Shown: positions 9,748 to 50,877 of the stretch, in pieces
How positions within the stretch are numbered: position 1 is the stretch's first letter
Layout: every line of letters begins with the position of its first letter
Assembly: GCF_058153355.1 (NCBI RefSeq)
Contig: NZ_CM177019.1
Length of the DNA stretch: 64,000 bases
Direction: 5' to 3' (one strand)
Made by a program: the position numbers and the translations under genes
The notes under the pieces: generated by a model
Seen by the model: only the letters and a program-made list of their open reading frames with translations
Databases searched by the model: none
Told to the model about the DNA's origin: nothing

Positions 9748-10996
<1,249 letters not shown>

Positions 10997-11026
10997 CATG
11001 CCTGCAATCTGGGAAACCGGGGTAGA

Positions 11027-11060
<34 letters not shown>

Positions 11061-24229: not shown

Positions 24230-24375
24230 TAGGATGGCGAGGCAGCATAGGGCTACAACGGTAAAGCCCTCACCGAAGCGAGGGCTTGAAGGAGAAGGGT
24301 TATGATGCGACTCGTCATCATACTGATTGTACTGTTACTCATAAGTTTCCCAGCTTATTAACAGTCAGTCACAGG
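24230..24375 (-). ncRNA. sibC: SibC antisense sRNA (antitoxin to ibsC); ends approximate
   Basis: Inferred from the known Sib/Ibs arrangement in which the sRNA fully overlaps the toxin ORF on the opposite strand; boundaries not determinable from sequence alone. Confidence 0.45.
24302..24361 (+). CDS. ibsC: type I toxin IbsC (19-aa hydrophobic peptide)
   Basis: GAAGGAGAAGGG Shine-Dalgarno then ATGATGCGACTCGTCATCATACTGATTGTACTGTTACTCATAAGTTTCCCAGCTTATTAA = MMRLVIILIVLLLISFPAY; too short for the ORF track. Confidence 0.8.
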   Translation: MMRLVIILIVLLLISFPAY

Positions 24376-24461
24376 GGAGGAGCAATCCTCCCTTACCCTT
24401 ACTCACTAAATTAGGTCAAAGAATCAACGATGTCAATCAGGGCGATGCAGGTGTGTCGCCC

Positions 24462-25082: not shown

Positions 25083-25268
25083 AGGGAATCTCCGAGATGC
25101 CGCCGCAGGCTGTAACCCTTGAACCCTTGGTTCAAGGTGAATGTGTCGTCACAGTTTTAAGGCTTCTCGGACGGACCGAGCATGCTCACCAACCGCGGAG
25201 CGCCACATTCTTGTGGTATGAAATATCGGCTCAGGGGACTGGCCCGCTTGCGAACATCTCAGAGAAAT
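25083..25268 (-). ncRNA. ssrS: 6S RNA
   Basis: Reverse complement reads ATTTCTCTGAGATGTTCGCAAGCGGGCCAGTCCCCTGAGCCGATATTTCATACCACAAGAATGTGGCGCTCCGCGG...GGAGATTCCCT, the 6S RNA sequence. Confidence 0.93.
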
Positions 25269-35104: not shown

Positions 35105-35307
35105 AAAGGCGCTTCGGCGCCTTTGACACTGATGTCAAACTCAACATTGCCTGATACACCTCGTTTATCAGGCCTACATAGTCTGTGCAATGTATTGAAT
35201 TTGCACGATTTTGTAGGCTGGATAAGGCGTTCACGCCGCATCCGGCATAATAAAAGCACTTTGTCATCAATAATTTGAAAGGCGCTTCGGCGCCTTTATT
35301 TTTTTAG
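35105..35307. repeat. BIME/REP cluster flanked by two copies of a terminator hairpin
   Basis: AAAGGCGCTTCGGCGCCTTT at 35105-35124 and again at 35277-35296, the second followed by a T-run; REP-like palindromes between them. Confidence 0.7.
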
Positions 35308-38745: not shown

Positions 38746-38776
<31 letters not shown>

Positions 38777-38806
38777 TCTACCCCGGTTTCCCAGATTGCA
38801 GGCATG

Positions 38807-40190
<1,384 letters not shown>

Positions 40191-47335: not shown

Positions 47336-48853
47336 ATGTCTGAACAACACGCACAGGGCGCTGACGCGGTAGTCGATCTTAACAATGAACTGAAAACGCG
47401 TCGTGAGAAGCTGGCGAACCTGCGTGAGCAGGGGATTGCCTTCCCGAACGATTTCCGTCGCGATCATACCTCTGACCAATTGCACGCAGAATTCGACGGC
47501 AAAGAAAACGAAGAACTGGAAGCGCTGAACATCGAAGTTGCCGTTGCTGGCCGCATGATGACCCGCCGTATTATGGGTAAAGCGTCTTTCGTTACCCTGC
47601 AGGATGTGGGGGGCCGCATTCAGCTGTACGTTGCTCGTGACGATCTGCCGGAAGGCGTTTACAACGAGCAGTTCAAAAAATGGGACCTCGGCGATATCCT
47701 CGGCGCGAAAGGTAAACTGTTCAAAACCAAAACCGGCGAACTGTCTATCCACTGCACCGAGCTGCGTCTGCTGACCAAAGCACTGCGTCCGCTGCCGGAC
47801 AAATTCCACGGTTTGCAGGATCAGGAAGCGCGCTATCGTCAGCGTTATCTGGATCTCATTTCTAACGATGAATCCCGCAACACCTTTAAAGTGCGTTCGC
47901 AGATCCTCTCTGGCATTCGCCAGTTCATGGTGAATCGTGGCTTTATGGAAGTTGAAACGCCGATGATGCAGGTGATCCCAGGCGGCGCGGCGGCGCGTCC
48001 GTTTATCACCCATCACAATGCGCTGGATCTCGACATGTACTTGCGTATCGCGCCGGAACTGTACCTCAAGCGTCTGGTGGTTGGTGGCTTCGAGCGTGTA
48101 TTCGAAATCAACCGTAACTTCCGTAACGAAGGTATCTCCGTACGTCATAACCCAGAGTTCACCATGATGGAACTCTATATGGCTTACGCTGATTACAAAG
48201 ATCTGATCGAGCTGACCGAATCGCTGTTCCGTACTCTGGCACAGGATATTCTCGGTAAGACCGAAGTGACCTACGGCGACGTGACGCTGGACTTCGGTAA
48301 ACCGTTCGAAAAACTGACCATGCGTGAAGCGATCAAGAAATATCGCCCGGAAACCGACATGGCGGATCTGGACAACTTCGACTCTGCGAAAGCGATTGCT
48401 GAATCTATCGGCATCCACGTTGAGAAGAGCTGGGGTCTGGGCCGTATCGTTACCGAGATCTTCGAAGAAGTGGCAGAAGCACATCTGATCCAGCCGACCT
48501 TCATTACTGAATATCCGGCAGAAGTTTCTCCGCTGGCGCGTCGTAACGACGTTAACCCGGAAATCACTGACCGCTTTGAGTTCTTCATTGGTGGTCGTGA
48601 AATCGGTAACGGCTTTAGCGAGTTGAATGACGCGGAAGATCAGGCGCAGCGCTTCCTGGATCAGGTTGCCGCGAAAGACGCAGGCGACGACGAAGCGATG
48701 TTCTACGACGAAGATTACGTCACCGCACTGGAACACGGCTTACCGCCGACAGCAGGTCTGGGAATTGGTATCGACCGTATGGTAATGCTGTTCACCAACA
48801 GCCATACCATCCGCGACGTTATTCTGTTCCCGGCGATGCGTCCGGTGAAATAA
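47336..48853 (+). CDS. lysS: lysyl-tRNA synthetase (constitutive)
   Basis: 505-aa [28 protein letters not shown]... Confidence 0.95.
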
Positions 48854-48888
48854 GCATTACGTTATGCTCACAACCCCGGCAAATGTCG

Positions 48889-50314
48889 TAATGCCAGTCA
48901 GTTAAGCAACTGACTGGCTCTTTTTCGGGGCTGTGGGGTATTTCCAGGGCCTCTCCTTTACCACTCTCGGGAAGGCCCTTTCCCTTCTTGTCGGTAATTT
49001 CACAAGTTGTCCCATACTTGCAAGATCGCGCATCAGCTCCGGTATACGTCCCGGTGAAGCGCCCTGCAATGTCATCAGCATTCTCATCACCATTCCGCAT
49101 GATTCTGAGAAACTCAGTTGATTCGGCCAGTAACCTTTCAGATGTTCCGCCATTTTAATCATCTGATATCTCACCAGATTATAAGCCAGTAAGACACCCC
49201 ACAGCTCTTGCTCCACAAGCTCCGGCTTTTTACTTCTCAGCGTCAGCCTGCTCAGTTGCATCGTCTGTTTTATCTCCCTGTATCCCAGTTCGATTTCCCA
49301 GCGATGACTGTACAGATCCGCCATTTCTCCTCCGGGGAAGCGCATGGCGTCCGTCATCGACGTCAGCAGATGGCAGACTTTTCCTTTGCGCGTCACGGTC
49401 AGCAGGCGGGCTGTCACTTCATTTCCCAGTCCCGGCCACTTTTTTCGTGCCTGCGGGCTGGTTTTCAGCTTCACCAGATGATCGCCTTTACCCAGTTTTC
49501 TGATCTCTTCATATTGCGCTCCCTTTCTGAGAGGTATCATCCAGTGGCGGTGTTCTCCCGCCAGGCTCCAGGCATTTAACAGTCCCAGTGAGTAATAACC
49601 TTTATCCATTAACGTCAGAGTGTTATCGCCGGTTTGTTCTATAAGTTGCTCAGCAAGCTCATTTTCGCTGTTCTTCATCGTGCCGAAGGCTGCAGCCGTC
49701 AGCAGATGGCTGGTCAGTTCCATCTGGCAGACCATTTTGACCTGCGGGTAGAGCGCCGGGTTCCCGGCATGTGTCTGGCGGGGGAAGGCTGCATCGTTCT
49801 CTGGTGTATCCGGTGTGCGCCAGAACACACCATCGATGGCCAGCAGGGTCAGGCCGCACCAGTGCGGATGCGGCGTGGCGTTATGCCAGAGCTGCGCTGT
49901 TTTCGTGAACACGCGGCGGACAGCCTCACTTCCCAGGCGCTGGCGGGCCTGAATAACGGCACTGGGGGCAACGAAGGGGCGATTGCCCGGCAGCATGATG
50001 TCCAGGCGATTCACAATCTGGTGAAGAGGTTCTTTACGCTCAAGCGCCATGCCAACAATACACCAGACCATCATTTCGAGGGGAAGACGGCGCTTGCGTA
50101 GCGTTACAGTACCTGATTCGGCAAGGCAACGAGAGATGAGTTCGGGGTCGAGGTAATCCCCCAGAGAAGTCAGTGGGTTACGCAGAGAATCGTAACGGGA
50201 TACCAGATCAAGAGCCTGTCCAATGTGCATAAAAAAATCCGGAAACAAGTGAGCGTTTCCGGATTCTTACACAGCCACTGGATCGGTCAACTGATCCTTA
50301 ACTGATCGGCATTA
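48889..50314 (-). mobile_element. IS4 insertion sequence
   Basis: 1426 bp; 18-bp imperfect terminal inverted repeats TAATGCCAGTCAGTTAAG (48889-48906) and CTTAACTGATCGGCATTA (50297-50314); flanked by 12-bp direct repeat CGGCAAATGTCG at 48877-48888 and 50315-50326. Confidence 0.92.
48902..50230 (-). CDS. insG: IS4 transposase
   Basis: Start at ATG 50230 ([14 protein letters not shown]); 442 aa; the ORF-track start at 50248 is not ATG. Confidence 0.9.
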
Positions 50315-50333
50315 CGGCAAATGTCGGGGTTTT

Positions 50334-50877
50334 TTATTTAAGCTGGGTAAATGCAGATAATCGTTTTCTGGCTTCGCGATTTGTCGCCTGCATCACCATC
50401 CACGGACTGAACGCCCACGGCGTGGCATCAATACCGCGTAAAACCGCTGCTAAATCACACCATTGATAATCCATCACTTCATCATCGTTGATCTGTAACG
50501 CACTGGTCGTGCGTGCGGCAAATACCGGACATACTTCATTTCTACAATGCCATTCGGATCGGTGGCGCGATAGCGAAAGTCAGGATAGATTCAGGAGGTG
50601 TAATTTCCACGCCAAGCTCATAACGGCAACGGCGGATCACCGCGTCTTCGTTGCTTTCTCCCAGTTGTGGGTGCCCACAAACCGAGTTAGTCCACACGCC
50701 CGGCCATGCTTTTTTGCTAAGGGCGCGGCGGGTAACTAATAATTGCCCTTTGGCATTAAACAGCCAGCAGGAGAACGCGAGATGTAAGAGAGTGTCTGCC
50801 GTGTGTGCGGCATACTTTTCCAGCGTACCCGTGGGAACTCCCTGTGCATTCAATAAAATGACGTGTTCCGTTTGCAT
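50334..50877 (-). pseudogene. idi: isopentenyl-diphosphate isomerase, disrupted by frameshifts
   Basis: N-terminal 111 codons (50542-50877) end at a premature stop; the Idi-like C-terminus ([13 protein letters not shown]...[17 protein letters not shown]) continues in a different frame to the stop at 50334-50336. Locus is 544 bp against 549 expected for a 182-aa gene. Confidence 0.7.

Follow-up and report, generated by a model that had tools for sequence, protein, structure and literature searches.

IS4 of Escherichia coli K-12 (insG) is the founding member of the IS4 family. Its historic insertions in the pheST attenuator terminator and in galT reportedly share a target with an A-run and a T-run, and a target consensus AAA-N20-TTT, partly based on the pheST attenuator terminator insertion, is said to go back to work by Mayaux et al. 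published in Gene in 1984. Class C group II introns insert downstream of terminators. For IS10 and IS50, structures at the element's end limit the activation of the transposase by host-gene read-through; in IS10, this is done by sequestering the ribosome-binding site within read-through transcripts. IS1397/ISKpn1 and IS110-family elements use REP sequences, i.e., intergenic stem-loops, as harmless landing sites (PMC1525189, PMC12288879). De Palmenaer et al. is cited here alongside the A-run/T-run target comparison; the literature also contains a general remark on the target-arm specificity of the IS4 subgroup. Within the searchable literature, we found no explicit statement that IS4 targets terminators and no AAA-N20-TTT consensus. 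A genome-wide link between IS4 and natural terminators and the idea of replacement terminators, both discussed below, were not found there either.

The stretch of DNA analysed here, in the following called the window, comprises 64,000 nucleotides of contig NZ_CM177019.1 (RefSeq assembly GCF_058153355.1) and carries a complete IS4 between lysS and idi. Respective coordinates are provided in Table 1. The copy is 99.9% identical to E. coli IS4 over 1426/1426 nt, and its terminal inverted repeats (18 bp, 16/18 matching, i.e., imperfect) end in TAATGCC. The transposase reading frame is intact and codes for 448 aa when started from TTG or 442 aa when started from the ATG at 50230. Its product is identical to WP_000483766 and matches the NCBIfam model NF033592 'IS4 family transposase' with 304 bits (cutoff 115), while the Pfam domains PF13006 and PF01609 are recorded on the identical protein. 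Length and identity, the inverted repeats, a DDE transposase with the IS4 N-terminal domain and a target duplication within the 11-13 bp class place the element in IS4 (IS4 family, IS4 subgroup). Compared with insG of K-12, it shows the same 1426 bp at 99.9% identity, the same 18-bp inverted repeats, one transposase ORF and the same 11-13 bp duplication class, such that location is the sole difference. Given its intact ends and ORF, the copy is probably still active. Near-full-length IS4 is common in the species (2479/5426 complete E. coli genomes), where RefSeq labels it 'IS4-like element IS4 family transposase'.

Table 1. Features of the lysS-idi locus in the window (positions count from the first nucleotide of the window).
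Feature	Coordinates	Strand	Basis
lysS (lysine--tRNA ligase), intact, 505 aa; stop TAA at 48851-48853	47336..48853	+	ORF list; annotation of homologous E. coli loci
Left part of the disrupted lysS terminator: 5' arm AACCCCGGC, loop AAAT, first 4 nt of the 3' arm	48872..48888	+	empty-site fold
Target-site duplication, left copy, CGGCAAATGTCG	48877..48888	.	repeat family D13
IS4, complete, 1426 bp	48889..50314	-	99.9% identity, full length
Terminal inverted repeat, end distal to the transposase start, TAATGCCAGTCAGTTAAG	48889..48906	.	16/18 match to the other end
Inward-facing terminator-like structure: perfect 11-bp stem, loop AAGC, then TCTTTTTC	48893..48926	+	top terminator-scan match; inverted repeat I12; folds
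IS4 transposase CDS, intact	48902..50248	-	ORF list, WP_000483766, NF033592, PF13006, PF01609
Inward-facing terminator-like structure AAUCCGGAAAC...GUUUCCGGAUU + U7, directly before the transposase ATG	50231..50268	-	inverted repeat I8; folds
Promoter-like TTGACC-16-AAGAAT (with TG)	50263..50290	-	consensus match only; regional count equals shuffle expectation
Terminal inverted repeat, transposase-proximal end, ...CTTAACTGATCGGCATTA	50297..50314	.	end-to-end comparison
Target-site duplication, right copy, CGGCAAATGTCG	50315..50326	.	exact repeat
Right remnant: second loop copy, 3' stem arm, T-run TTTTTTATTT	50315..50339	+	terminator scan, folds
idi (isopentenyl-diphosphate isomerase) pseudogene	50334..50877	-	alignment with the intact L020 idi; ORF list

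The element is bordered by an exact 12-bp direct repeat that is extendable on neither side; an exact 12-mer on either side of a known IS is far beyond chance. Deleting IS4 together with one repeat copy yields the empty site ACAACCCCGGCAAATGTCGGGGTTTTTTATTT (in its fuller context ...GCTCACAACCCCGGCAAATGTCGGGGTTTTTTATTTAAG...). In the lysS direction, the respective RNA has a stem of 9 bp (AACCCCGGC/GUCGGGGUU) capped by a loop of 4 nt, after which U6AUUU comes; the U-tract adjoining the stem on its 3' side reads GGGGUUUUUUAUUU. The hairpin alone has an energy of -14.8 kcal/mol, and its 52-nt context scores z = -4.2 against shuffled sequences. The reconstructed site thus shows the G/C-rich stem-loop and the U-tract of an intrinsic terminator in the lysS direction and is predicted to act as one. 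In about 5392/5426 complete E. coli genomes, one place covers a 1-kb reconstruction of the empty site, and the same unbroken hairpin sequence can be read directly in the IS-free locus L020. This makes the hairpin a host sequence rather than a piece of IS4. We also considered a REP identity for the lysS hairpin, which is rejected given that it has neither REP-like sequence nor an naRNA4 match in Rfam; the Rfam search reported no RNA family within or near the IS4 element.

The initial annotation had described an IS4 insertion at 48877-50326 with a 12-bp target duplication, where removing the element and one repeat copy restores a hairpin with a T-run. All of this is borne out: the full-length match to E. 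coli IS4 copies confirms the identity, the two repeats are identical to each other, the fold of the reconstructed site agrees with the IS-free L020, and the coordinates are exact to the base, the repeats directly abutting the element. The two outcomes it had named as failures, i.e., no hairpin on reconstruction or unequal flanking repeats, were both checked and did not occur.

The genes lysS and idi are indeed convergent, as had been proposed, with stop codons about 43 nt apart and the idi stop codon overlapping the terminator T-run. It is this geometry on which the label of a 'shared' lysS/idi terminator rests. Read in the idi direction, the empty-site hairpin reaches only -10.9 kcal/mol and continues into UUGUGAGC / UUGUGAGCAU, that is, it lacks the U-tract expected on this side of a bidirectional terminator. 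Because of the weaker hairpin and the lack of a U-tract on the idi side, the folds identify the empty-site hairpin as a canonical terminator for lysS only.

The idi copy of the window is a pseudogene. Compared with the intact 182-aa idi of L020, it shows a 4-bp deletion at about 50590/50591 (one ATCT unit of the tandem ATCTATCT) and, as a second lesion, a 1-bp deletion at about 50541/50542, and its reading frame ends after 111/182 codons. The exact 111-aa truncated Idi has matches only in three read-archive (Logan SRA) assemblies, whose respective contigs end about 250 nt past the Idi fragment, i.e., roughly at the start of IS4. The suggestion that idi may have lost its terminator is moot because idi is already inactivated by the two frameshift deletions.

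For transcripts entering IS4, terminator-like structures are found just inside both of its ends. From the lysS side, the first such structure starts 5 nt inside the element: its hairpin (48893-48918, -17.5 kcal/mol) is followed by UCUUUUUC and constitutes the top site of the terminator scan. Relative to the lysS stop codon, the predicted 3' end of the transcript moves from about 44 nt at the empty site to about 72 nt in the presence of IS4. From the idi side, transcripts first meet the hairpin directly preceding the transposase start (12-15 bp, -15.5 to -18.3 kcal/mol). This structure is missing from the sites listed by the consensus terminator scan, probably because its stem can extend into the T-run. 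Termination is thus predicted from the folds for the native hairpin as well as for the two IS4 hairpins. Since the hairpin and U-run structures face inward at both ends, we predict long read-through from neither lysS nor idi; transcripts from either gene would end some 30-100 nt further on. The read-through of lysS into IS4 put forward in the initial annotation therefore holds in so far as transcripts do enter the element, but the 11-bp hairpin is predicted to stop them there.

The structure in front of the transposase gene resembles the protection known from IS10 and IS50 in that IS4 likewise has an end structure, i.e., a hairpin with U7 directly before the start codon. It differs from IS10 in that it resembles an intrinsic terminator, as far as can be predicted, instead of sequestering a ribosome-binding site. 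The -10 hexamer of the promoter-like site within IS4, a weak consensus match, overlaps the 5' arm of this hairpin. Transcripts started there would lack the full stem and might escape termination.

Further folds are possible at the junctions. On the right, a weak hybrid hairpin (-7.1 kcal/mol) can arise in front of the native T-run from the final 8 nt of IS4 together with the duplicated loop. In the fold of the junction on the left, the 5' arm of the lysS hairpin that has lost its partner, CACAACCCCGG (48869-48880), pairs with the IS4-internal UCGGGGCUGUG (48926-48935) and thereby encloses the IS4 hairpin. This pairing is probably a coincidence; it would make a structured 3' end of the lysS transcript more stable still.

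IS4 target sites were compared across loci gathered in two ways, namely by similarity of 20 nt of flank to lysS-idi, which is a biased criterion, and by exact identity to one of three transposase protein variants, for which the flanks were ignored. The sample comprises 21 distinct IS4-occupied loci aligned on their duplication, 5 of which were found through flank similarity. All in all, the targets follow a common order of an A-run, three G/C-rich bases, a duplication of 11-14 bp (C...G), again three G/C-rich bases and a T-run. That is, A is observed at positions -8 to -4 in 15-20/21 loci and T at positions +4 to +8 in 16-20/21. The duplication starts with C in 17/21 loci and ends with G in 17/21, while the three bases flanking it on each side are in general mostly G/C. 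At the 20 loci other than lysS-idi, its length is 11-14 bp, and the spacer between A-run and T-run measures 18-20 bp in 14 of the 16 sites for which it can be determined. An A3/T3 rule holds for 15/21 sites compared to 0.2% of the window positions; the rule was picked after the data had been seen, such that an exact P value is not trustworthy, and the effect is very large.

The lysS-idi site matches this profile perfectly in its right arm (TTTTTT from 3 nt past the duplication) and weakly in its left arm, which provides AA only. In the historic IS4 targets, the duplication reportedly lies between an A-run and a T-run that are separated by about 20 bp, and the insertion falls into a terminator stem-loop; the 21-locus profile gives the same picture. 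The lysS-idi site resembles these targets in its stem-loop and T-run and differs from them in its reduced left arm.

Concerning structure, the fold energy of 17/29 site variants is no higher than the 5th percentile of random 40-mers, and many sites are located 33-79 nt past a stop codon (adhE, aroA, mukB, glmS, glgP, eno, bipA, pgi). Most sampled IS4 sites are thus terminator hairpins just after stop codons. Motif sites without a hairpin also exist (L036 with 0 kcal/mol, L037, L040); one motif site is found in a divergent promoter region (ravA-kup) and another inside a TonB-dependent receptor gene (L031/L035). These hairpin-free, promoter-region and in-gene sites speak for recognition of the sequence motif as such, with terminators being its most frequent natural form.

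The tips of IS4 (TAATGCCG.../...CGGCATTA; 48889-48896 / 50307-50314) resemble the preferred target core, and target duplications often start with CGGCA and end with TGCCG or TGTCG. Due to the resemblance of the tips to the target core, IS4 junctions can re-form short hairpins (e.g., 50306-50327).

The use of intergenic stem-loops as landing sites is shared with IS1397/ISKpn1, IS110-family elements and class C group II introns. IS4 differs from these REP- or terminator-homing elements by its DDE transposase, by the 11-14 bp duplication centred on the hairpin apex and by an A/T-flanked motif in place of a REP sequence or RNA-guided pairing.

The lysS-idi site is a recurrent hot spot of IS4. Among the 5426 complete E. 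coli genomes, 4 have IS4 at exactly this position, inserted in the same orientation (L016-L019), with copies that differ from that of the window by 1-12 nt. The best match to the window's occupied site has an identity of 98.3%, such that the window's genome is not one of these complete genomes; taken with the IS load and the idi pseudogene, this would suggest a Shigella-like or draft Escherichia genome. The duplication of L016 is the same as in the window. L017 shows CGGCAACCGTCG, i.e., a variant loop, in both repeat copies and is therefore an independent insertion, since a different loop allele was duplicated. L018 combines the window's duplication with a divergent flank on the idi side. In L019 (E. 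coli FDAARGOS_944, L019:3300-5402), the right-hand duplication is lost and IS4 directly adjoins a truncated ISEc60, beyond which hok/gef and cysH are found. There, a rearrangement involving ISEc60 removed everything up to the cysH region, such that idi and its neighbours are deleted or rearranged. The five copies at the site form two sequence groups, i.e., window/L018/L019 and L016/L017, which are 9-15 nt apart. At least one of the four other occupancies is thus independent.

The shared orientation of the five lysS-idi copies corresponds to about 3 independent events and is not significant. A fixed orientation as a general rule for IS4 is rejected, since both orientations are found at aroA-ycaL, mdoH-yceK and adhE-tdk. 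In summary, the window carries a known element in a typical kind of target, and four E. coli genomes in RefSeq already have the lysS-idi occupancy annotated. That such sites are the normal target preference of IS4 and that lysS-idi is repeatedly hit had been missed by the initial annotation.

Two of the sampled loci, L027 and L028, both from GCA_052122925.1, show exchanged flanks (aroA-IS4-mukB and ldtD-IS4-ycaL) and have no matching duplications. This indicates an inversion through recombination between the IS4 copies borne by the aroA-ycaL and mukB-ldtD terminators. The window itself holds two further mobile elements of another kind, i.e., two 100% identical, inverted IS110-family copies of 1295 nt at 9763-11057 and 38746-40040, which are 27.7 kb apart. 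Each encodes a 326-aa transposase with a match of 253 bits to NCBIfam NF033542 'IS110 family RNA-guided transposase', and this transposase looks IS621-like. As expected of a REP-targeting IS, the second copy abuts a REP/naRNA4 Rfam match at 40030-40107. The pair could mediate an inversion of the intervening segment. Above the Rfam gathering score, the window also shows SIB RNA, 6S RNA (ssrS) and the ES036 sRNA (24286-24436, 25085-25268, 35170-35212), as is usual for this part of the E. coli chromosome.

Alternative explanations concern the extent of the element, the origin of the target pattern and the consequences for the locus. Since the target is palindromic, the inverted repeat I1 seemingly spans 35 nt with 83% complementarity (48872-48906 / 50297-50331), as if the hairpin halves belonged to a longer mobile element with 35-nt inverted ends instead of an IS4 within a host terminator. 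We give this practically no credence and reject it, given the IS-free intact hairpin at the lysS-idi locus in about 5392 E. coli genomes and the different sequences that directly border the 1426-bp element at 20 further loci; none of the other IS4 loci sampled showed the hairpin halves moving along with the element. It is also very improbable that IS4 inserts near-randomly and that the terminator copies are merely the harmless survivors. Most sites of the sample are intergenic and closely follow genes, where an insertion harms least, and in-gene insertions are generally under-represented in Shigella. Furthermore, every observed insertion has passed selection, such that targeting and survivorship are not fully separable. 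The register is however too exact for survival alone: in most sites, 3 nt separate the duplication from the end of the A-run on one side and from the start of the T-run on the other, and its C start and G end recur in 17/21 loci. Motif sites without a hairpin (again L036, L037 and L040), the one within the TonB-dependent receptor gene, the independent insertions at the identical nucleotide of lysS-idi and the many other harmless intergenic positions that are unused likewise speak against it. We infer that the target preference stems from recognition by the transposase and not only from the survival of harmless insertions.

That the insertion is truly regulatory, i.e., that it alters the 3'-end formation or stability of the lysS transcript or that IS4 transcripts run antisense into lysS or idi, we regard as unlikely. 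The native terminator is physically split, and the minus strand shows no terminator-like structure between the transposase stop and lysS, which makes antisense transcription into the lysS 3' end possible. Yet the IS4 hairpin that replaces the native one is no less stable and carries a U-rich tail, and the insertion is tolerated in four E. coli lineages despite lysS being an essential-class housekeeping gene. Furthermore, the expression of the IS4 transposase is expected to be low.

We are highly confident that the locus carries a complete IS4 that was inserted by DDE-type cut-and-paste transposition into its preferred kind of target, with the native terminator destroyed and the hairpins of the IS4 ends predicted to take over. 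According to this reading, the transposase would have cut the two strands in a staggered way, with 12 bp between the cuts and the apex of the lysS terminator hairpin at their midpoint, and the repair of the resulting gaps would have produced the 12-bp duplication. The lysS-idi site would have been chosen because it fits the preferred target, in which a G/C-rich and usually palindromic core is bracketed by an A-run and, 18-20 bp away, a T-run; in nature, this arrangement would be met most often in terminators that have an A-tract to one side and a T-tract to the other. The insertion would have destroyed the native lysS terminator, while the inward hairpins and U-runs just inside both IS4 ends would stop transcripts from the lysS side as well as from the idi side, the latter before the transposase start codon. 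Apart from a lysS 3' end that is somewhat longer, hardly any net effect would be expected.

A broader picture, which we put forward tentatively and hold to be somewhat short of an even bet, is that of IS4 as a terminator-homing element that chooses the apexes of A-tract/hairpin/T-tract sites, i.e., terminators of the bidirectional type, and brings along inward-facing replacement terminators at both ends that shield its transposase from host read-through, such that its insertions are near-silent and independent lineages are hit repeatedly at the same terminators. It is supported by the data presented here; one part of it, the A/T-flanked target motif, is old knowledge, and its functional half is a prediction.

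For the locus itself, the effect of the insertion is expected to be small: lysS is intact and predicted to keep a terminator supplied by IS4, and idi is already dead. Because the lysS-idi terminator is a recurrent landing site, IS4 at this position is a poor marker of common descent. Beyond the single locus, IS4 copies in terminators constitute portable homology that is able to drive rearrangements, as seen for the aroA/mukB inversion and the deletion in L019.
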